Source of the DNA: a phage
Strand: one strand, 5' to 3'
Sequence record: PZ379075.1
Length of the DNA stretch: 64,000 nt
This document shows, one piece after another, positions 31,145-43,699 of this stretch (its first letter is position 1; each line of letters starts with the position of its first letter). The translations under genes and the position numbers were made by a program. The notes under the pieces are model-generated. The model had not been told where the DNA came from. It saw only the letters and a program-made list of their open reading frames with translations, and did not search any database.

Positions 31145-31154
<10 letters not shown>

Positions 31155-31681
31155 ATAAGTTTAACCTTATGGAAGAAGAGATTGCTGATCTGTGTCACAA
31201 ATTAAGAGATAAGACCAGAACGATTTCTATGTTACGTGCAGTTATTGATAGCTATCGTAAATCTGTTGAAGAAATCTCTTCGTGTTCTGCTGATACAGAA
31301 ATTCGGTATGCAATGAAAAGGTTGATAGTAAAGCCGCCAGTAGGTGAAGAGTATCCAATTTATTCCTCTGTTCCTGTAGTCAGTTTTAAGCCTACAACTG
31401 AACAAACCAGCAAAAGAAGTCCAGCTTTAGACACTATGGTTGGGGGTGCACACTATAACCCTGAATCTAAAATCATTCAGCCTGTTGAGTTTTACCATGC
31501 AAACCCTCAGTTGAACTTCCAACAAACCAATATGATCAAATACGCTTATCGACACAAAGATAAGAATAAGGTTCAGGATTTGTTGAAGGTTGTTCACTAC
31601 GCCCTTCTTGAGTGTGGGTTTGAATACCCTGAAGAGTATGATAACTTCCGCAATGAAATCCGTAAGCTGTTAGGAGAATAA
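31145..31681 (+). CDS. hypothetical protein
   Basis: 178-aa ORF. Confidence 0.5.
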
Positions 31682-33472: not shown

Positions 33473-33627
33473 GGGGGTTATATGAATGAAGAAGTTGTTA
33501 TTCTTGGAAGTAAATCAGATTGGTTCTACGGAGGCATCTCAGGGTGCTTTGAAGATGAACGTCCAGACCTCTGAAGAAAATTGGGATGTATGACGAATTT
33601 GATGGTTTTTAAAACTTAGAAACAAAC

Positions 33628-33660
33628 AAAGCCCCTTCCTTTCGGTTGGGGCTTTTCTTT
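33628..33660. terminator. bidirectional intrinsic terminator at the convergence point of the two modules
   Basis: aaagcccc-ttcctttcggtt-ggggcttt with an A-run on the 5' side and TTTTCTTTTAT on the 3' side; sits between the last + ORF and the stop (33663) of the 1298-aa - strand gene. Confidence 0.6.
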
Positions 33661-33662
33661 TA

Positions 33663-36600
33663 TCACTCCTTAGGTCGAACTCTTACACGGAGTCTCGATT
33701 GACGCTTACTGCGTTCAAGCTTCTCTGACAATGAGCCACGTTTAATCTTCGGCTTCCCTTCGTCATTAAACTTCTCCAAGAACTGCAAGTACTCAGTACG
33801 ATTCGTTGTCTTGTAAGAAGGAATCTTAATATCAGGGTTCTCTTCAATTACACGTCTCATCTTCGCTACATCATCCCTACCAAGCAACTTACTCTTAGCC
33901 TGTTCAGCTGTAGAACCAAAGATCTTCTCCAGTGCTCTGGATTTGTTACCACCTGCGGAAGAAGCACCAAGTTTAGCAATGGCAGAGTAATCATCAGCAC
34001 TAAACCAAGCTACCGGATTATCACCATACTTCTTCTTGTTTTCAGCAGCAGTCTGCAATGCACGTACAAAGCGACGGTTGTTACCAGCCTTATCTGCACC
34101 ATGAACCCTGTCTAAAACTTCAGCCACACTAGCCAACTCATCCAAGCTCTTCCCACTCAAGAAAGCTTTCTCTACTTTATCAGCAAAAACCTCTTCCTGT
34201 TGTTTAATGCTTTCCAAGATATCAGAATTTGCTTGAGATCTTTCATCATCAGGCAGAGCAGAACGAATCTTCTCCATCTCCAACTCTTCCTCTTGCAGTT
34301 TCTTAATATCAGAGTCAACCTTCTGAGCCTCCTCAATAGCCTTCCTAGTATCCGCATCCAAGTTATCAAGTTTACCTTCAGTATCTCCAGTAACCTTAAC
34401 AATCTCTTTCTCGATAGGAGTCATTGATTCGTACTTCTTAGCGAACTTCTCAACATCAGCCTCAATACGAGAGCGAGCATTCTGATGTTCAGTTGGAGTC
34501 ATAGGCTTCTCGAGAAGTGCATAACGGTTATCCATATAGGAACCAGCAAACGCTTCAGCATCCTCTCTAGATATGCCCTTATCTTCCATAGTACGCATCA
34601 GGCGGCGATGAATATCATCACGTTGACGTTGTACTGCCATAAGATCATTCTCACGCTCTTGGGCCGCTTTAAGCTCTTCACTGCGCTTAACTCTCTTGTC
34701 CACATCAAACTTGCGGTTCATCTCTTCCGCTTGCTCATACATCTTGTTCCACTTAGCCTGACGAGCATCTTCCTCTGCATCAGTTAAACGACGCTGACGA
34801 TCAAGGTAGTCTGACTCGGCGTTATGGATACGTTCAATGTAACTACGGAACTTCTCTGGAGGAACTGGAGAGTTCTTATCGTGGTGAGCAGCCAACTGTT
34901 TCAGTGTACGAGATTCCTGAGCCTCACGAACAGGTTTAGGTAAACCTTCCATCATCTTCTCAATCTCACTCTTCTGAGCTGCAATAGCCTCTAGAGTTTT
35001 ACGTTCATTCTCAACAGCAGCTTTAGCATCCGAACGAGCCTGAGCCTTTTTCCTGAGTGTAGCAAGACGTTCTTCACGAGCCTGTAAATGCTTAGCAGCA
35101 GCTTCGTACTGAGAGTTCTTGTTAGCTTTGTTGAAGGCATTCACTTCTCTGTTATAGGTGTTAATAAACCCATCCCAAATATCCTTCATCTGACCAACTT
35201 CCAAAGCCTCTTCCCTACCAGCCTTCTCTGAAGATTTAAACTTTCCATCTACAAAGTCATTCATCAATTTACGCATAGCGTCTTTCTGAGCAGGACGTAA
35301 AGGTTCTGCATCAATCAAAGTATCAATCTCAGACTGAAGCTCTTTCTTCTGGTCAACCAGCTTAGGAGCATTCTTGTTATCGAAAGCTTTATTCTCTTCT
35401 AGAGCTTGTTGGTACAGTCTATCAAACTCATCTTCACGCTGCTTCTGATACAACCTTTCAGCACGACGTTTCAGACTATCCAAGTTAGTTACGTTCCCAC
35501 CTAAACCTTTCTCTTCAGCACGTAATGCCTTAGTAGCAATGTCTTCTGGCAGACCACGTTCTTTAACCCATTCAGCAAAGTTAGTTCGTACAGTGTTGTT
35601 CTTAGCAGTAGCAATACCTTGCTGAGAAGCCAGCTGGTTACGAGCCATTTCTTCATGACGTTCAGTGTTGATAGCATTATCTTCCTGACGAATACGACGC
35701 ATCAGTTCCTTAGGATCACCTTTATAGGCCAAGAAGTTTTCAGCAGTAGCTTTAGCTTTAGCAGCCTTAGAGTACAGAGAACGAGCAAAACGTTCTGCAC
35801 GATCTTTAGTAGCCTGACGAGCAGCACTAGACATAGCAGCTAAACGTTCTACACCACTTGCCGGTTTAACGTCCTGTACAGCTTCCTTAGGAGCTTTAGG
35901 AGCACGAGCAGGTAATGGCTCAGCTTTGACTGTTGGTTCCTCTACGGTTGGTTCTGGAGCCTGTGCGGCCTCTTCTTGAGCACGTTGCTGTTCCATTGCA
36001 CGACGCTCCTCTAGAGGGTTACGAGCAGGGAGAGGTTCAGCCTGTGGAGTTTGTTCGACCGGAGCTTCTTGAGCAGCCAATGCCTCTTCTTCAGCGCGAC
36101 GCTGTTCAGCCTGACGGATAGCGCGTCTTTGCGCAACTAAATCACGAGCTGTAAGAGGAGTTTCTTGAGGAGCAGAAGAAGGAAGATTTTCTTCCGTCAC
36201 AGTACTAGAAGAAGGCTCCCGAACCGGTTCGGTTTCCACGTCATTTTGCGTCTTAAATTTAATGTCATCAACAACTGGTTCTTCTTCCATTTTAGCACGA
36301 GCTTCATCAGCAGTAGATTTAGCACGAGCAACTTCCAAATCACCACGAGCAAGAGAGCGGATAGCTTCGCTGTTAGATTCTTGTTGCTTAACACGTTGAG
36401 AGCGAGCACGCTGAGAAGAGAAGCGATTCAGAGCATACTTAGCAGCACCAAGAGTGTTCATTACCAGACTAGGTGAAGAAGCCTCACGGAATCCATCATC
36501 AGTCAGGGAAGTCCAACCACGGTCTTGATTGCTCATGAACTTAGCTGTATTGTTCAGAGTGTAAGCATCTTGAATAGGATTAAAACCTTCAGGCATACCT

Positions 36601-37559
36601 TTCAGTTTCTTCAACCCACCAATAGCTTTCTTCATCTCTGGAGAAACATTATCAGCCATCTTCTGTAGTTCAGCAGCTTTCTCTACAAAGTTGTTAAAGT
36701 CTTCACCATCACGAGCTTTGAATCGATTTGCTTCATTATAGAAAGTCTTGTAAGCATCAATGAAGTCACGGTCGGCTTGTGTACGATTCTTAATATCAAT
36801 CGGACTACCAGTAAAATCACCAGAAGCTCGGAGAGAGGTTAATTCACGGTCTAGATTATCTAGAACATCTGTAAGAGCTTTCGTGTTGTCTTTGGTGTAG
36901 TCAGCCATTGCATCCTTCATAGCAACAGCCTGCTTCTGGTTGTGCTCGTTATCAGCGAATGCTTTACCACGAGTCTTAGCAGGAGAAGCTAAAGGGTTGA
37001 GGCCCGGAATGTTGGAATGTTCTTTCTGAACGGAAGCAGCTTTCTCAGCACGAGCTTGGTCAGTATTAAGAATACGCTGAGCGGCAGGAGAATCTACAGC
37101 AACAGCATCTGTAATACGGAATCCATTCTCATCCAGAAGGTTCAGAGCAGAAGCAGCGTTAGCAGTTTCAGCTTTAGAGTAAGCTTCTTTCAATTCATCA
37201 ATATTCTTAGCACTACGAATCAGTTCATCATCAGCAGCAATATCGGTCTTCGCATACTCTGGAGTGTTCTTGAAGACAGCAGAATCCGGACGGCTAATCA
37301 AACCATGAACCCCACCAACTGCACCACCGAATGCAGCACCCATAGCACCTTCTTCGATAGCACCCTCTAATACATTAGCAAAGGTTGTATCATCTCCATG
37401 CTTGTTCTGAGCTTCAGCAGCACCTACAAGAGCACCACCTTTAGCACCAGCCACTGCGTTAGTAGCAACGTTCTGACCAATACGTCCAAGTGTGGACTCA
37501 GCTGTACCAACAGCGCCCGGAAGGATTCTCTGAGCCGCATAGTTAGCACCACCAACCAA
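33663..37559 (-). CDS. large virion-associated protein (putative ejection/internal protein or tape-measure-like)
   Basis: 1298 aa; Gly/Ala-rich hydrophobic N-terminus, long highly charged coiled-coil-like body with EPLPAR repeats; last gene of the structural operon. Confidence 0.55.
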   Translation of the reverse strand: MVGGANYAAQRILPGAVGTAESTLGRIGQNVATNAVAGAKGGALVGAAEAQNKHGDDTTFANVLEGAIEEGAMGAAFGGAVGGVHGLISRPDSAVFKNTPEYAKTDIAADDELIRSAKNIDELKEAYSKAETANAASALNLLDENGFRITDAVAVDSPAAQRILNTDQARAEKAASVQKEHSNIPGLNPLASPAKTRGKAFADNEHNQKQAVAMKDAMADYTKDNTKALTDVLDNLDRELTSLRASGDFTGSPIDIKNRTQADRDFIDAYKTFYNEANRFKARDGEDFNNFVEKAAELQKMADNVSPEMKKAIGGLKKLKGMPEGFNPIQDAYTLNNTAKFMSNQDRGWTSLTDDGFREASSPSLVMNTLGAAKYALNRFSSQRARSQRVKQQESNSEAIRSLARGDLEVARAKSTADEARAKMEEEPVVDDIKFKTQNDVETEPVREPSSSTVTEENLPSSAPQETPLTARDLVAQRRAIRQAEQRRAEEEALAAQEAPVEQTPQAEPLPARNPLEERRAMEQQRAQEEAAQAPEPTVEEPTVKAEPLPARAPKAPKEAVQDVKPASGVERLAAMSSAARQATKDRAERFARSLYSKAAKAKATAENFLAYKGDPKELMRRIRQEDNAINTERHEEMARNQLASQQGIATAKNNTVRTNFAEWVKERGLPEDIATKALRAEEKGLGGNVTNLDSLKRRAERLYQKQREDEFDRLYQQALEENKAFDNKNAPKLVDQKKELQSEIDTLIDAEPLRPAQKDAMRKLMNDFVDGKFKSSEKAGREEALEVGQMKDIWDGFINTYNREVNAFNKANKNSQYEAAAKHLQAREERLATLRKKAQARSDAKAAVENERKTLEAIAAQKSEIEKMMEGLPKPVREAQESRTLKQLAAHHDKNSPVPPEKFRSYIERIHNAESDYLDRQRRLTDAEEDARQAKWNKMYEQAEEMNRKFDVDKRVKRSEELKAAQERENDLMAVQRQRDDIHRRLMRTMEDKGISREDAEAFAGSYMDNRYALLEKPMTPTEHQNARSRIEADVEKFAKKYESMTPIEKEIVKVTGDTEGKLDNLDADTRKAIEEAQKVDSDIKKLQEEELEMEKIRSALPDDERSQANSDILESIKQQEEVFADKVEKAFLSGKSLDELASVAEVLDRVHGADKAGNNRRFVRALQTAAENKKKYGDNPVAWFSADDYSAIAKLGASSAGGNKSRALEKIFGSTAEQAKSKLLGRDDVAKMRRVIEENPDIKIPSYKTTNRTEYLQFLEKFNDEGKPKIKRGSLSEKLERSKRQSRLRVRVRPKE

Positions 37560-37567
37560 GGCTGCAT

Positions 37568-38083
37568 CTAGAATAGATTTATCTTCCCCTCTTCAGGGGT
37601 TTGGTCTGCATATGCACGACCTGTCTCACGACCTGCGATGATAGCAGCAGCAGCCAATGGGTTAGCAACAGTCATACCAATATCACCAGCAACGCCAGCA
37701 TACTGACCTACAGTTTTACCAATCCCATCCTCAATCTTATCCATACGTTCTTTCAGAAGATTCTGAGAGTTCTCTTGGATACGCTTACCATAACTAGTTT
37801 GTGCTCCAGCTAGATTCTCACCAATCTCAACTAAACCACCAATACCTTTAGCAGCACTAGCTGCAATATTTGCACCACCAGATTGAAGAGCATTTGACAC
37901 ACCTTGAGCAAACTCACCTATAGCACCACGTTCTTCTTGTTGTGGTTGTGCTACTGGCTGTTCCTCAGGAATAGAGCCACCTGCTGCCTTATATTGTTCT
38001 CTCATTTGAGCTTGTTGCTCCGGAGAGGCATTCAGATACGCAGGAGCTTTGGAAGCTTCTTCCCACGGTTTAATGTTAGCCAT
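37568..38083 (-). CDS. hypothetical virion protein (Gly/Ala-rich)
   Basis: Start moved to the internal ATG at 38083, preceded by AAGGAG; glycine-zipper-like segments. Confidence 0.5.
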   Translation of the reverse strand: MANIKPWEEASKAPAYLNASPEQQAQMREQYKAAGGSIPEEQPVAQPQQEERGAIGEFAQGVSNALQSGGANIAASAAKGIGGLVEIGENLAGAQTSYGKRIQENSQNLLKERMDKIEDGIGKTVGQYAGVAGDIGMTVANPLAAAAIIAGRETGRAYADQTPEEGKINLF

Positions 38084-38150
38084 AACGTCTCCTTTTATAA
38101 ATAAAAATGTCCTACCCCCTATATACATTATAGAAGGCAGGACTTAGGTC

Positions 38151-39806
38151 TTATTGAGTGAACCAGCTCGTATCTTCAACAGCTGATAGAGCACCATTAA
38201 GCTTAGGATTGGTTGCTGCACCACCAACCGCTTCTTCTGCTTGTTCAGAGAAAACACCTAGAGGGTCATAGAAACCACCAGAAGGGATTGCACGGTTGAC
38301 CAATGCAGTAGCTCTCTTCTTATCCATACCAGAACCAATGTAAGCTTCAATCGTAGCTCTCTTAGCATCAGCAACACCTTTCATTGCAGAGGTATGACCA
38401 ACGTTAGCTTGCTTACGAGCATAAGCAAGAGCAGAATCAGTAGGACGCCATCCAGACTTCAGTGCAAACTTGTTGCCAACACGAACGAAGATTGACGGGT
38501 CTTCTGCAAAGTGCCCCAAGTCTTCTTCGGTAAGAGAACGAGTAGCACCGATTTCAGCCCTTGCGGAGTTCATGATAGCTTGCATGTAAGCAGAACGAGC
38601 TGTCTGATAGTCTTTATCCTTAACAGCCTTATCAGCCAAATCCAAGTCTTTATTAGACTGGTTAAACAGGCCACCTTTCTCTGCCCACTGCTTAGCAACC
38701 GTACCTTCAGCTGTATTCTGAGCAAGACGAACTTCTTTCGGGTTAAAGTTAAAACTCTGAGCAGCTTGTTCAGCACGTTCAGCCTTGACTTGATCACGAT
38801 ACCCAATCAACTCTTTCTGACGTTCAAAGTTCATATTAGCCCTTTCTTCAGCAGCACGACGAGTTTCCTCAGCACGCTCACGCATAGTCTGCTCTTGAAT
38901 CTGTTGACGTCTATCCCATTCAGCATTTTGTCGTTCTTCACGAGCAGCATACAGCGCTTCTTTCTGAGCAGGGTCTACAGCTCTCATCTTCAGTAGAGAC
39001 GGGTCTCCGTTAGCAATAGCAGCTGCAATCGAGTCTTGAGAGAAGCCTTGTTCAATCAGAGCATCACGGTTAGCTTCCAGTTGCTTCTTAGTCTCATCTT
39101 GATTAGCCATTCCCTGACCAATCTGGAAAGCTTCAATAGGAGACTTACCTGACATAATGGAAAGACCTACACCCATCAAACCTGTGTAGAAACTGGAGTT
39201 TTGGTAGAATGGTTCTTTCTGTAGTTTGTTCCAAGCTTCCGAAGGGTCTTTAGCTTTCGCAACTTGCAAGATATCGTTGTTAACACGTTCCTGATCTTTA
39301 GCACGAGTAGCAGCAGCCATTCCATCACCAGTGTCTTGTCCTTGAGCAAGAGTATTAATCACACCCTGTGCCTGTTCCACCTGAGAAGGAGTAAACTCCA
39401 TAGGACCAGCTTCTAGTGGTTTAGGAGGAGGTGTTACCGGAAGAGGGCCACTAGGCATAAGCCCAGCATCCTGTAAACCTTGATCAGTGGATAGGTTAGG
39501 ATTAGCTGATACAGGGGCCGGTGCTCCAATATCAATACCCTGAAGACTGGTAGGAGTTCCTTGATTCTGCTGTTCCATAAGACGTTGCTGGAATCCCGGA
39601 TTAACCATAGCATTCTGATCTTCCTCTGCCTGAGAGACAAGACCCGCAAGAGATGAAGGTACAGCAGGACGTTGATACATAGAAATATCTGCTGTCTGAG
39701 TAGGTCTAGCCATATAAGGAGAGGCCGAAGCCGCTCCCGGATTAACACCATAGAAAGTATTTCTCGGGTCACGACTTCTGACCTGAGCGTAAGTTGTCTG
39801 TTGCAT
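38151..39806 (-). CDS. hypothetical structural protein (Q-rich)
   Basis: 551-aa ORF. Confidence 0.55.
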   Translation of the reverse strand: MQQTTYAQVRSRDPRNTFYGVNPGAASASPYMARPTQTADISMYQRPAVPSSLAGLVSQAEEDQNAMVNPGFQQRLMEQQNQGTPTSLQGIDIGAPAPVSANPNLSTDQGLQDAGLMPSGPLPVTPPPKPLEAGPMEFTPSQVEQAQGVINTLAQGQDTGDGMAAATRAKDQERVNNDILQVAKAKDPSEAWNKLQKEPFYQNSSFYTGLMGVGLSIMSGKSPIEAFQIGQGMANQDETKKQLEANRDALIEQGFSQDSIAAAIANGDPSLLKMRAVDPAQKEALYAAREERQNAEWDRRQQIQEQTMRERAEETRRAAEERANMNFERQKELIGYRDQVKAERAEQAAQSFNFNPKEVRLAQNTAEGTVAKQWAEKGGLFNQSNKDLDLADKAVKDKDYQTARSAYMQAIMNSARAEIGATRSLTEEDLGHFAEDPSIFVRVGNKFALKSGWRPTDSALAYARKQANVGHTSAMKGVADAKRATIEAYIGSGMDKKRATALVNRAIPSGGFYDPLGVFSEQAEEAVGGAATNPKLNGALSAVEDTSWFTQ

Positions 39807-39819
39807 ATTTATCTCCTAA

Positions 39820-40788
39820 TTAAGTACTAGCCAACCCACCGATTACACCCCCAGCTAATGCACCCCAAGGTCCAAAGGAAGAGCCACCTGCTGCACCACT
39901 CATAGCTCCACCAAGGAAACCACCTTTGCCACCAGATGTTTTAGTAGTTGTAGTTTGTCCGAGAGCACCGTTAAGTACACCTGCTGCACCGAGTTGGTTA
40001 TTGATATCTTGCCATCCCCAATTAGCTGCGTTCTGAGCATTCTGGTAGGCATTATCATATTCATTCTGTTGTTGCTGTTGTTGCTGCAACCCTGCATTCC
40101 ATTGATTCATTATTTGCTGTTGAGACAAATTAGCACCCTGCTGACCTAGGTTAGAAAGGTTAGAACCAATATTAGAAAGACCAGAGAGAGCAGCTGCCTG
40201 ATTCTGTCTATTACCAGAGAGGATGCTTTCAGCTTGGCTGATAGCCGAGTTATATGCACTATTGGTAATATCTGTTGCTTGCCCTTGCATCTGATTCAGA
40301 GCATCACCTTGGGCAAAAGATTTAGCCATACGAGCACCTGAACCCTGCTGACCAGCATACTGTTGAGCTAACTGAGGAAGAGCATTACGTGCCAAGTTCT
40401 GTTGAACCTGTTCATTATTAGCTGTAATGGCTGCTTGCACAGCGTCATCATCATACAGTTGACCAGCGAGAGCACCAATCTGTTCTCCAGTAATCCCACC
40501 TTGTCCAGAGAGGCTCTGATAGCCTTTATAGGCATTATCCAGATACCCTAACCCTTGACCTGCTGCATCCATGTATTGCTGTGAGAGAGTGCCCAAAGCG
40601 CCAGATTGTGCTAGGTTATTAAGTGCCTCTGTCTGATTGTTATTAAACCCTACATTGTCACGATAGACATAATCCCCTGAACTAGTATTACCAATCTGTT
40701 GGTTAAGCTGGTCAATATACTGTTGAATGTATTCAGGGCGAATCATTTGGGAAGTAGTTTTACTACCCCCGCCTCCGAAAAGTCCCAT
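39820..40788 (-). CDS. Q/N-rich low-complexity virion protein, paralog 1 (C-terminal glycine zipper)
   Basis: 322 aa; N-terminal MGLFGGGG, QQQQQQ run, NQWNAG...WGWQDINNQLG shared with 40801-41853; C-terminal GGFLGGAMSGAAGG. Confidence 0.5.
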   Translation of the reverse strand: MGLFGGGGSKTTSQMIRPEYIQQYIDQLNQQIGNTSSGDYVYRDNVGFNNNQTEALNNLAQSGALGTLSQQYMDAAGQGLGYLDNAYKGYQSLSGQGGITGEQIGALAGQLYDDDAVQAAITANNEQVQQNLARNALPQLAQQYAGQQGSGARMAKSFAQGDALNQMQGQATDITNSAYNSAISQAESILSGNRQNQAAALSGLSNIGSNLSNLGQQGANLSQQQIMNQWNAGLQQQQQQQNEYDNAYQNAQNAANWGWQDINNQLGAAGVLNGALGQTTTTKTSGGKGGFLGGAMSGAAGGSSFGPWGALAGGVIGGLAST

Positions 40789-40800
40789 ATCAAATCTCCT

Positions 40801-41853
40801 TTAGTTTGCTCCAAATGCCCCTAAGACACCACCTAAGATATTACTACCTGCTGTGGATAACCAGTTAGACTGACCTCTCTGTTGAGAAAGATTAGAACCA
40901 CCAATCATAGGACCAGCCATTCCAGATTGCCCACCTGAGTTGTTATAGGAACTCCAAGCATTCTGAGTCTGTTGATTAGGAGAGAAAGCACCCATACGAC
41001 CTGCAATACCTAATCCAGTGATACCAGCACCTAGGAGCTGTTGTCCAGTATTAACCCCCGGAGCAGCATTCTTAATCGTGTACCCAGCCATTGGGCTTAC
41101 ACTATTTAATACATTAAGTTGGTTGTTAAGCTGATTCCACCCATACTGTTGAGAGCCAATAGCGTTCTGCCAATTAATATCAGCTTGAGCTTGGGCTTGT
41201 TGCTGTTGTAGATTACCAGCCATGAGTTGATTCTGGATAGCTTGTTGAGTTGCCTGAACACCTTGAGCACCAAGATTGAGATTCTGTCCAGCCAATCCTG
41301 ACTGAGCACCAAGTAAGCCCCTCTGGAAGTTTTGGTCTTGTTGAAGAGCACTGATTCCCATATTCTTGCCACTGATAGTACGAGCTAAGTTTGTATTAGC
41401 ACTGTTCAGAGCAGCACCTTGAGCAGCAGCTCTACGGAGAGAGCCTGAATCAGAACCATTTCCGAGGGATACATTGGAAGCTGCCTTACTAGTCGCTTGA
41501 GCAAGAGCTGAGTTATTCAATCCTTTACTAAAGTTATTAACACCATCAGCAGTTAGACCACCACCATTGACAATATTCTGATACTGCTGTGCAAGAGAAT
41601 TTAATTGGTCCAACCCTTGCTGTGTACGAGGCGTGTACATATCAGCCAATTGCTTCTGAGTAGTAGAAGCTGCTAAGTTGTTCAGAGCACCCTGTTGGTT
41701 GCCATTAAACCCAGCCAGTTGTTGGGAGATGAATCCCGGATCGTTGTTCTGCATATTCTGAGCATTAGCAACAATCTGCTTCAGCAGGGCATCAACCTGA
41801 GAGGAAGGGGCCACTGTGGTTTTGCTAGAAGCTGATTTTCCAAATAAAGACAT
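40801..41853 (-). CDS. Q/N-rich low-complexity virion protein, paralog 2
   Basis: 350 aa; N-terminal MSLFGK, NLQQQQAQAQADINWQNA...YGWNQLNNQLN. Confidence 0.5.
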   Translation of the reverse strand: MSLFGKSASSKTTVAPSSQVDALLKQIVANAQNMQNNDPGFISQQLAGFNGNQQGALNNLAASTTQKQLADMYTPRTQQGLDQLNSLAQQYQNIVNGGGLTADGVNNFSKGLNNSALAQATSKAASNVSLGNGSDSGSLRRAAAQGAALNSANTNLARTISGKNMGISALQQDQNFQRGLLGAQSGLAGQNLNLGAQGVQATQQAIQNQLMAGNLQQQQAQAQADINWQNAIGSQQYGWNQLNNQLNVLNSVSPMAGYTIKNAAPGVNTGQQLLGAGITGLGIAGRMGAFSPNQQTQNAWSSYNNSGGQSGMAGPMIGGSNLSQQRGQSNWLSTAGSNILGGVLGAFGAN

Positions 41854-41872: not shown

Positions 41873-42655
41873 TTACTTTACACCAATGCTAGCCAAACGT
41901 CTGAGCACTGCTTGTGTTTGTGGACTGTACTGAGAACCTGCTGCATGTGGTGCACTTGCCCTCTGAACTGTTTGAGAAGTCGGAGGTTTACCAGCAAGCA
42001 TAGCAGCTACACCTAATACTGCATTACCAAAGTTCTGTTGAGGCTTCTGATCTTCCCCTTCCTGCACTTCATCAGAGTAAAACTCTACTGGATTTCCTCC
42101 TAAAGCACCTGTCTTAGAAGCAGTAATGTCTGCCTGAGTTGGAGCTTGTGCGGCTTTCTCTCTATCTAACAAGTCAGGACTAAACTGATTGACTGGTTGA
42201 ACAGCTTGCAAAGCTCCAACAGGGTTAGCAATCTGAGAAGCTGCATCACCATAGAAAGGAAGAAAGTGTTTATTGTTCATGGAGTCAAGAGCTTGTGGAG
42301 TAAATCCCTTTTTACCAGCGAACATTTGCTTAGCACCACCGATACCTTCTGAGTAACCAACCATTGCTTTCTTAACATCACCATTAAAAGCCTTTAAGTT
42401 ATCTCGAATATAACGAGCACCCATATCAATATTCTTTGCTGGGTCAAGTCTGTCTTCTAGTTTGTAGCCGTAGTCTTTAGCCAACCCTTTACTGATCTGC
42501 ATTAAACCTACAGGACCAGTTCCAGAAGCCACTGTAGGACGACCACTAGACTCCCTTTGGATTACAGCATGAATCAAAGCAGCAGGAATCCCATACTTCT
42601 TTGAAGCCTGTTGAACCATTGGGTCTAGTTCTTCAATACCCATCTTAATTGCCAT
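41873..42655 (-). CDS. lytic transglycosylase (SLT domain) protein
   Basis: GLMQISKGLAKDYGY and overall SLT-like N-terminal domain with catalytic-Glu context (QRESSG). Confidence 0.6.
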   Translation of the reverse strand: MAIKMGIEELDPMVQQASKKYGIPAALIHAVIQRESSGRPTVASGTGPVGLMQISKGLAKDYGYKLEDRLDPAKNIDMGARYIRDNLKAFNGDVKKAMVGYSEGIGGAKQMFAGKKGFTPQALDSMNNKHFLPFYGDAASQIANPVGALQAVQPVNQFSPDLLDREKAAQAPTQADITASKTGALGGNPVEFYSDEVQEGEDQKPQQNFGNAVLGVAAMLAGKPPTSQTVQRASAPHAAGSQYSPQTQAVLRRLASIGVK

Positions 42656-42667
42656 AATATCTCCTTG

Positions 42668-43699
42668 TTATAGTCCAGCAAAAACCTTAGCTGCATTTAT
42701 TACAGGAACTGATAAATTAACTACAGTATCAGCTCCTAGGTCGTAATTTTGATCCCACTGAAACAGATATCTTCCATAGCCAGTTCCTATGCTAGAGCCA
42801 CTCATTGTGTGAGATCTCATTTGCTGATATCTCCACCCACTACCTCGACCTTTTATTGCACCTATTCCAGAAGTAAGAGGTATCATAGGATATGCCATAC
42901 CAGTGTTGCCCCCTCCCGAACCAATAAAATTGTCTACAGTGAAAGGTGTTCTATTAGTAGAGAAGACACATTGAGTTGTCCCAGGAGAATATATGTTTAA
43001 CCCACCATTATGCTCAGGAACACCAGCTCCGTTACAGAACACAGCGACTCTAACAAAGACAGAACCACCTTCGTTAGTGTTACCATTGACATAAGGCCTA
43101 TTCTGATAGACTCGAATAACCCTATCATCAGATGTGTAAGATAAACCGATCCCTCCATCAGACCAATTAGCAAACACAACAGCATTGGTCATATTGAACC
43201 CACCAATATTTGGTATCTGAAGGGAGTTGTTTATGGTCCCCTGCCAAGCCCAAATACATTGACCAACAACCCCACTATCAGAGATTGAGAAATAATCTGC
43301 TGTATTTGAGAAAGTGATTCCATAGTTTCTGTCAGCTCTAGGCCATATTTGGTATACGTTGAACCCACAGTCAAATAGTGGGTTACTACCGGGATTCTGG
43401 TTCAGAGTCACCCTAAAAGATGAGTTATTTTCTACATAGATGTTATTTACACAATAAACATCAGGGACTAAGTTAGGAGGGACTTCCCATTGCCAGCATA
43501 GAGAACCAGTAGGAACAATAACTATCTGACCGCTACCATCCCATCCACTAATAGGGAAAGATCTCCCTGCTCCGTTAAAGTTAAAACTCCCTCTTATACT
43601 ATTTTTGAACTGAGGGAAAGTGCTTCCACTGTCTATAAAAAGAGGGGCTGGTGTAGCTGGTCCCGGCCCTACTGGTTGTGTCCAAATTCCATATGCCAT
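42668..43699 (-). CDS. hypothetical structural protein (possible receptor-binding or tail protein)
   Basis: 343-aa ORF, Gly/Asn/Ser-rich beta-type composition. Confidence 0.45.
   Translation of the reverse strand: MAYGIWTQPVGPGPATPAPLFIDSGSTFPQFKNSIRGSFNFNGAGRSFPISGWDGSGQIVIVPTGSLCWQWEVPPNLVPDVYCVNNIYVENNSSFRVTLNQNPGSNPLFDCGFNVYQIWPRADRNYGITFSNTADYFSISDSGVVGQCIWAWQGTINNSLQIPNIGGFNMTNAVVFANWSDGGIGLSYTSDDRVIRVYQNRPYVNGNTNEGGSVFVRVAVFCNGAGVPEHNGGLNIYSPGTTQCVFSTNRTPFTVDNFIGSGGGNTGMAYPMIPLTSGIGAIKGRGSGWRYQQMRSHTMSGSSIGTGYGRYLFQWDQNYDLGADTVVNLSVPVINAAKVFAGL

Follow-up and report, generated by a model that had tools for sequence, protein, structure and literature searches.

A probable Kuravirus ejection-protein cassette with two amide-rich paralogues and an interrupted large gene

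A stretch of phage DNA of 64 000 nt (sequence record PZ379075.1), subsequently called the window, carries on its minus strand at positions 33663–41853 a block of genes that raises a question: do the encoded proteins, two of which are exceptionally rich in glutamine and asparagine (Q/N), leave the virion with the genome and build a channel through the cell envelope? From the letters alone, the original prediction had read the block as a set of ejection proteins at the end of the virion operon and had called the Q/N-rich composition prion-like. We find that the block is very probably the ejection-protein cassette of a Kuravirus, composed of the four genes gp21–gp24 together with the adjacent gp20, and that gp24 is split by a one-base deletion. 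The status of this cassette as a set of ejection proteins has already been published for phage SU10, in 2014 and 2022. Beyond this literature the additions made here are modest: the diagnosis of a frameshift in gp24, an old duplication behind gp21 and gp22, the conservation of the cassette, and a probable homology of its small proteins to a protein of Bruynoghevirus.

Identity of the cassette and the case for ejection

In order to place the window among known phages, positions 33663–41853 were compared with phage genomes by megablast, which identified it as a Kuravirus, a coliphage like phiEco32 and SU10. The search returned 99 records; 93 of these cover at least 80% of the block, all of them Kuravirus/Gordonclarkvirinae podophages of the phiEco32/SU10 type, and the best match is Shigella phage ShigP1 (98.7%). 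The genes of the minus-strand operon follow the order of SU10 genes 5 to 24, and the order of gp17–gp24 after the tail needle gene is that of the SU10 record. All minus-strand open reading frames (ORFs) that had been listed for the block were found where the original prediction had placed them. Compared over their full length with SU10 gp20–gp24, the proteins are 95.5–99.4% identical. The features are as follows.

41873–42655, minus strand: gp20 orthologue, SLT transglycosylase, 260 aa (98.1% identity to SU10 gp20; Pfam PF01464)
40801–41853, minus strand: gp21 orthologue, 350 aa, paralogue ‘a’ of phrog_4287 (97.1% identity to SU10 gp21)
39820–40788, minus strand: gp22 orthologue, 322 aa, paralogue ‘b’ of phrog_4287 (99.4% identity to SU10 gp22)
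38151–39806, minus strand: gp23 orthologue, 551 aa, phrog_12130 (95.5% identity to SU10 gp23)
33663–38083, minus strand: gp24 orthologue, ∼1473 codons, reading as two ORFs (phrog_14629 matches the intact form over its full length)
37568–38083, minus strand: upstream half of gp24, 171 aa (99.4% identity to SU10 gp24 residues 1–167)
33663–37559, minus strand: downstream half of gp24, 1298 aa (98.2% identity to SU10 gp24 residues 176–1473)
37586–37589, minus strand: one-base deletion, a run of four G in place of the five bases of relatives, GGGGG or GGGAG (alignment with phages Bas90 and ShigP1)
33620–33656, minus strand: terminator-type hairpin with a stem of AAGCCCC ... GGGGCTT and a GAAA loop, then TTTGTTTGTTT (read from the sequence)

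The gp20 gene lies outside the block of 33663–41853, yet it is the first gene of the cassette. Its SLT domain spans residues 13–116 (PF01464, E 1.3e-23, 83.2 bits versus a gathering cutoff of 21.3), and the translation carries the catalytic motif RE35S36SG and G50-L-M-Q53, as expected of a family 1 lytic transglycosylase; the neighbour had been named correctly. That the block closes the late operon of the minus strand also holds. The hairpin and T-tract at 33620–33656 follow the gp24 stop codon, where the SU10 record annotates a terminator immediately after gp24, and on the strength of this pattern the structure can be taken to mark the end of the late operon. A consensus terminator scan did not flag it.

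The function of the cassette is best seen in SU10. Mass spectrometry of SU10 virions detected all five proteins gp20–gp24, with masses of 27.5 kDa for gp20, 35.9 kDa for gp21, 33.3 kDa for gp22 and 60 kDa for gp23, and gp24 (163 kDa) was covered to 73% by 116 peptides (PMC4281155, Mirzaei et al. 2014). Virion proteomics, which had been named as the experiment that could overturn the ejection reading, had thus already been carried out in a near-identical phage, and its outcome speaks for ejection. In SU10 the five proteins are packed in the DNA-filled head and leave upon loss of the tail needle and genome release; they are missing from the genome-release intermediates (PMC9509320, Siborova et al. 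2022). In the proposal of the same study they prolong the nozzle to give a translocation channel while gp20 degrades peptidoglycan, but no density was resolved for gp20–gp24 and the channel is called ‘putative’ (PMC9509320). A paper on phage YF01 gives the syntenic genes the same reading. Packaging in the virion and loss on release were shown for SU10 only, and we assume that they carry over to the window proteins at 95–99% identity. With this identity and the virion data of SU10, the reading as ejection proteins is upheld. That they build a channel through the envelope is, as in the SU10 study, a hypothesis.

The SU10 data themselves, which show presence in virions and absence after release, would equally suit internal head proteins that leave with the DNA and never build a conduit: a DNA-organising, pressure-buffering core, or effectors of the host cytoplasm. 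The long charged body of gp24 (33–34% charged residues), in which no membrane or channel domain is recognisable, would agree with such a role, and the large ejected protein of N4-like phages is an enzyme, the virion RNA polymerase (vRNAP). However, Pfam searches at E ≤ 0.1 assigned gp21–gp24 to no family and detected no enzymatic domain in them. The four genes are co-transcribed with an ejected transglycosylase, and their order of small, medium and large proteins parallels the ejectosomes of T7, DEV and Pa223. Moreover, each of gp21, gp22, gp23 and gp24 contains a conserved Gly-rich, weakly hydrophobic segment. We therefore regard head proteins that build no conduit as decidedly improbable and favour ejection proteins that take part in DNA translocation. 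In gp21, gp22 and gp24 the Gly-rich segments contain chains of [GAS]xxx[GAS]. Hydrophobicity maxima (Kyte–Doolittle, 19 residues) are 1.49 for gp24, 1.16 for gp21, 0.93 for gp22 and 0.85 for gp23, all below the classical transmembrane threshold of 1.6, also within the chains. Such values would suit proteins that have to remain soluble inside the head; that the segments enter a membrane is what we infer.

The cassette is not restricted to close relatives of SU10. The order SLT, ∼320–335 aa, ∼322 aa, ∼500–570 aa and ∼1110–1360 aa recurs in relatives at 43–54% identity, and conservation of the five genes in distant and chromosomal relatives, as judged from these gene orders, is one of the modest additions of this analysis. 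An Escherichia coli assembly (GCA_023211535.1) carries on a chromosomal contig of 389 kb (DAHCAP010000002.1, 204317–225285) a cassette encoding an SLT protein of 291 aa followed by proteins of 334, 322, 498 and 1113 aa. Its gp22-like protein shares 43% identity with that of the window, and the locus also contains an SU10-type major capsid protein, a terminase and an SU10-type portal. Kuraviruses are strictly lytic, and this locus appears to be a prophage-like relative. Two further gp22 homologues were located on large contigs of Enterobacter cloacae (317 kb) and E. coli (132 kb).

gp24, a gene read as two

The original prediction had counted five proteins, among them a Gly/Ala-rich protein of 172 aa and a separate protein of 1298 aa. 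These two ORFs, the first of which actually encodes 171 aa, are halves of a single gene of 1473 codons, gp24, and the block therefore comprises four genes. In the window sequence as given, gp24 is not present as one ORF of about 1473 codons. The comparison of the window (GAGGGGAAG) with ShigP1 (GAGGGGGAAG) and Bas90 (GAGGGAGAAG) shows that one base is lacking in the G run at 37586–37589, which puts a TAG in frame eight codons on. In SU10, Bas90, ShigP1 and KBNP1711-type phages gp24 is a single ORF of 1473 codons, and relatives at only 23–29% identity likewise carry a single ORF of 1113–1362 codons. The alignment with these distant homologues is unbroken and conserved across the position of the break (motif RETGxAYADQTPGE..VGGANYAAN.ILPGAGG); since it is continuous there, the Gly-rich parts of the 171-aa and 1298-aa ORFs belong to one N-terminal domain.

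All 59 related records that match positions 37540–37640 span 102 nt, in comparison to 101 nt in the window, and none matches at 100%. Because the deletion is found in none of these 59 relatives, an error of sequencing or assembly in the homopolymer is its most likely cause. Errors in homopolymer length are common in assemblies.

Could the split be biological, yielding separate proteins of 171 and ∼1298 aa, or could the full-length protein be restored by a −1 slip on G_GGG_A? The sequence as it stands, with its four Gs and a TAG that comes into frame after eight codons, is what such a reading would require. A candidate slip of the P-site tRNA-Gly in GAG GGG AAG, from GGG onto the overlapping GGG, would allow perfect re-pairing and, by translation of the shifted frame, would give exactly the wild-type gp24 peptide. 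A split gene, in that case gp23, is also present in another Kuravirus record (vB_EcoP_WFI101126, below). On the other hand, the domain that the break interrupts is the best conserved of the protein and runs on unbroken even in the homologues of 23–29% identity, and none of the 59 relatives shares the deletion. The downstream piece would need a TTG start without spacing for a ribosome-binding site of its own, and there is no canonical X_XXY_YYZ slippery site at the break. Together with the general frequency of homopolymer errors, this makes a biological split unlikely. We thus favour one gene with a probable homopolymer error, and gp24 of the window should be annotated in this way and not as two hypothetical proteins.

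In Escherichia phage vB_EcoP_WFI101126 (MK373770 / NC_070991) the gp23 orthologue is recorded as two proteins of 363 and 226 aa; the block aligns with this record in two pieces and contains five coding sequences there. Split ejection-protein genes thus occur in other database records too, probably as a result of indel errors.

In its intact form gp24 consists of a conserved Gly/Ala-rich N-terminal domain of ∼270 aa, a Pro/Glu-rich linker that varies in length, and a long, highly charged body for which helices are predicted. The body contains 30–47% charged residues per 100-residue block from residue 601 on, and it differs between lineages by insertions and deletions. A homologue search with the N-terminal 339 residues gave only two matches; we suspect that low-complexity words saturated the candidate filter.

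The paralogues gp21 and gp22, and gp23

The first two genes after gp20 had been described as paralogues with an M(G/S)LFG start, rich in Q/N and ending in glycine zippers. The paralogy is evident: gp21 and gp22 begin with MSLFG and MGLFG, respectively, and are 33.8% identical over ∼296 aligned residues. Both show full-length matches to the hidden Markov model of phrog_4287, ‘DNA ejection protein’ (E 1.4e-117 for gp21 and 3.4e-109 for gp22). In an alignment of 31 sequences of this family the N-terminus is conserved (MGLFGGG..TT.S..RP.Y) and followed by a Q/N-rich middle, and the best-conserved part is the C-terminus with the nearly invariant TTTxKTSGGG-GxLGGAMSGAAAGSAFGPWGALAGGVIGG. The claim of C-terminal glycine zippers stands in part. 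The tail of gp22 (residues ∼285–322) is glycine-zipper-like, with a long chain of [G/A/S]xxx[G/A/S], whereas gp21 has a looser Gly/Gln/Asn-rich end, and no Pfam glycine-zipper family was detected in either protein.

A profile search of 1.84 billion representatives retrieved 390 relatives with E ≤ 1e-3, of which 75 have E ≤ 1e-10; their length is mostly 300–430 aa, and 10 of 10 distant matches that we sampled belong to phrog_4287. Among isolated phages the family was found only in Gordonclarkvirinae and in phages of Cronobacter, Aeromonas and Proteus, at least some of which are prolate podophages. Distant relatives carry gp21-type and gp22-type proteins as separate orthologous groups, with both copies in every relative examined: identities are 38–74% within the gp21 type and 44–80% within the gp22 type, but only 28–38% between the types. 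From these groups and the low identity between them it follows that the duplication is old and that both copies were retained, which is a further addition of this analysis. Searches of the PDB were without result: with gp21, gp22, gp23 or intact gp24 as a single query sequence, no match had an E-value below 0.4, and the gp21/gp22 profile found none either.

We compared the composition of the proteins with a background of the window's ORFs of 150 aa or more (43 in number). With Q+N contents of 26.6% (gp21) and 25.2% (gp22), versus a mean of 10.5 ± 4.1%, both are true outliers. Charged residues make up only 6.6% of gp21 and 8.7% of gp22 (mean 23.4 ± 6.4%), and gp21 is devoid of glutamate. The Q/N residues are retained by position. 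Among the 30 sequences of gp22 type (of the 31 aligned), whose identity goes down to 35%, an average of 64% have Q or N where gp22 does, and in 27 columns the share reaches or exceeds 80%. The alignment-averaged hydrophobicity of gp22 oscillates with a period of 3.45–3.8 residues and exceeds that of shuffled controls in four of five predicted helices, where 0.2–4% of 500 shuffles reached the observed value. An AlphaFold2 (AF2) model of gp22 from the 31 sequences places helices over residues 19–275 but is unreliable, with a predicted local distance difference test score (pLDDT) of 38, too low for a fold search.

These data bear on the suggestion that gp21 and gp22 are disordered, prion-like proteins whose Q/N content drives aggregation or condensation, for example with DNA in the head. 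A Q+N content of 25–27%, runs such as QQQQQQQ, uncharged stretches of 46–48 residues and the very low confidence of the gp22 monomer model would all suit that idea. However, the retention of Q/N by position and the helical periodicity argue against low complexity, as do the 390 full-length-type relatives of similar size. Low monomer pLDDT is also expected of proteins that fold only as oligomers; the model of Pa223 gp56, described below, is a channel only as a nonamer. A prion-like nature is thus very improbable, and we do not retain the term ‘prion-like low complexity’. The Q/N positions of gp22 fit conserved amphipathic helices, which probably fold only in an oligomer.

The sole tandem DNA repeat of the block lies in gp22: at 40066–40086 a 21-nt array, (CTGTTGTTG) × 2.3 on the plus strand, encodes the run QQQQQQQ at residues ∼235–241. 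The corresponding alignment columns vary among homologues.

The 551-aa protein gp23 had also been called Q-rich. This was not borne out, as its contents of 8.7% Q and 14.0% Q+N represent a mild Q enrichment within one standard deviation of the window mean. Its N-terminal third is Q/P-rich and predicted to be disordered (residues 1–136), and in family alignments an invariant Gly-rich hydrophobic segment, PFYQNSSFYTGLMGVGLSIMSG, occupies residues ∼199–220. For the C-terminal half AF2 predicts long helices, among them one of 72 residues, with pLDDT values of 83–93 for residues ∼280–520; the model had no significant fold match in the PDB. Relatives of gp23 in BFVD come from phages ECBP2, GAP52 and Privateer, where the protein is named ‘virion-associated protein’, and the Privateer paper contains no text on ejection proteins. 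A likeness of profile positions 438–496 to ubiquitin (polyubiquitin E 2.9e-5, single ubiquitin only E ∼0.6) was treated as chance, since repeats inflate the E-values and the AF2 model is helical in this region.

Known ejectosomes, a possible mechanism and neighbouring genes

A comparison of profiles with known ejection proteins had been suggested as a check, and it gave a positive answer for the small proteins. The gp21/gp22 profile matches gp53 of the Bruynoghevirus LUZ24 with an hhalign probability of 92% (E 6.4e-7, 210 columns). The score of 53.5 lies far above those of global shuffles (13.8 ± 2.7), of the reversed sequence (23.2) and of shuffles in blocks of 20 residues (19.3 ± 4.0, maximum 32.9), and transitive phmmer searches connect LUZ24 gp53 with intermediate sequences that the profile search had retrieved (E-values down to 2.8e-14). 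Like gp22, LUZ24 gp53 (313 aa) is rich in Q, N and G and ends in TTSSGGGGGGG followed by a Gly-rich tail. These profile data argue for a distant homology of the two families that goes beyond composition and is new here. The structural modules of LUZ24 and phiEco32 have been placed in one lineage (PMC10386132).

For the Bruynoghevirus Pa223, putative roles have been given as outer-membrane channel (gp56, 313 aa), periplasmic tunnel (gp54, 505 aa) and inner-membrane complex (gp53, 1055 aa); these roles are predictions, only gp54 having been seen, bound around the portal, and in AlphaFold3 (AF3) models gp56 made a channel only as a nonamer (bioRxiv 10.1101/2025.06.11.659172). We assumed that Pa223 gp56, gp54 and gp53 correspond to LUZ24 gp53, gp51 and gp50, respectively. 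In both genera small, medium and large genes end the structural operon, but in Kuravirus the small protein occurs as two paralogues and the SLT domain has a gene of its own. The Kuravirus set would thus work like a small/medium/large podovirus ejectosome in which only the small subunit is linked by homology, to a family of predicted role. This link joins two poorly understood ejectosomes, so that results on Pa223 and LUZ24 can guide work on Kuraviruses, several of which are therapy candidates.

Other known systems resemble the cassette in arrangement. SU10 gp20–gp24 are the same genes in the same order, and the only difference in kind is the private gp24 deletion of the window. As in Kuravirus, T7 gp14, gp15 and gp16 are packaged in the head, ejected before the DNA and encoded in a size-ordered operon, and lytic transglycosylase activity is part of the set; in T7, however, the SLT domain forms the N-terminus of gp16, whereas in Kuravirus it is a separate protein of 260 aa, and SU10 lacks a resolved core stack. 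P22 is, like SU10, a phage with a tail needle and with ejection proteins that are invisible in virion reconstructions. Its gp7, gp20 and gp16 belong to PHROGs 598, 917 and 770, and the window proteins to 4287, 12130 and 14629. A glycine-rich end and a tube lined with Q/N bring to mind protein H of phiX174, which forms a decameric coiled-coil tube for DNA; this is an analogy only. Protein H belongs to PHROG 1471, unlike gp21 and gp22, and its Gly-rich membrane-active segment is N-terminal, whereas that of gp21 and gp22, which share the Q/N-rich helices, is C-terminal. Amide and guanidinium side chains line the lumen of the H tube (PMC7354561). The tube is useful as an analogy, not as a homologue, for why a conduit for DNA might be Q/N-rich.

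On this basis the following mechanism can be proposed. After the nozzle has formed, the ejection proteins would pass through the tail channel, and gp20 would cut the peptidoglycan. Through their amphipathic helices, rich in amides and almost free of charge, gp21 and gp22 might then oligomerise into an amide-lined helical assembly whose Gly-rich C-termini engage the outer membrane; the two proteins would thereby act as has been proposed for Pa223 gp56, and their family resembles LUZ24 gp53, the assumed counterpart of that protein. gp23, of the ‘medium’ class, with its conserved Gly-rich segment and helices of more than 100 Å, may help to continue the conduit through the periplasm and inner membrane, together with gp24 of the ‘large’ class with its Gly/Ala-rich N-terminal domain and long charged body. 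A more specific version, which we put forward tentatively and consider rather doubtful, is that gp21 and gp22 co-assemble into a hetero-oligomeric helical tube with a Gln/Asn-lined lumen and Gly-rich C-termini in the outer membrane, convergent with the phiX174 H tube and shared across the LUZ24/phiEco32 lineage. If such a tube were formed, the low charge of the proteins (0% Glu in gp21) could be understood as an adaptation for passage through the tail channel and spontaneous membrane insertion. The amide-rich, nearly uncharged helical proteins of the prolate podophage ejectosome are good targets for structural work.

Several points weigh against this interpretation of the cassette and its proteins. 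That a channel forms, and which envelope layer each protein would belong to, is what we infer, as even in SU10 neither a structure nor density is available for any of them. No segment of gp21–gp24 reaches classical transmembrane hydrophobicity over 19 residues, Pfam contains no glycine-zipper family that matches any of the four at E ≤ 0.1, and the gp22 monomer model with its pLDDT of 38 offers no reliable fold. Outside the small proteins the profile comparison was negative: hhalign probabilities were 0.15% for gp23 against LUZ24 gp51, 2.7% for gp24 against LUZ24 gp50, 0.37% for gp23 against T7 gp15 and 0.42% for gp24 against T7 gp16. The gp21/gp22 profile itself gave 0.07% with T7 gp14, 0.3% with P22 gp20, 0.65% with phiX174 H and a weak 31% over 49 columns with P22 gp7. 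The equation of LUZ24 gp53 with Pa223 gp56 is assumed from equal length and gene position within one genus. Finally, an assembled sequence does not separate a sequencing error in gp24 from a true private mutation, although an error is most probably the cause.

Two neighbouring ORFs of the window may be mentioned. Between the tail needle and SLT genes, positions 42668–43699 (minus strand) encode the orthologue of SU10 gp19 (343 aa), which matches Pfam DUF6453 (E 1.7e-25) and phrog_1265, ‘membrane protein / moron’, and has the third-lowest content of charged residues in the window (10.2%); gp19 is not listed in the mass-spectrometry table of SU10 virions. On the plus strand, an ORF of 178 aa at 31145–31681 lies between the genes for a GTP-binding protein and an exonuclease. 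ShigP1 has a coding sequence of similar size (531 nt) there, whereas SU10 and Bas90 carry an 894-nt kinase / ATP-binding gene in the same slot, which thus appears to be a replaceable position in the early/middle region.

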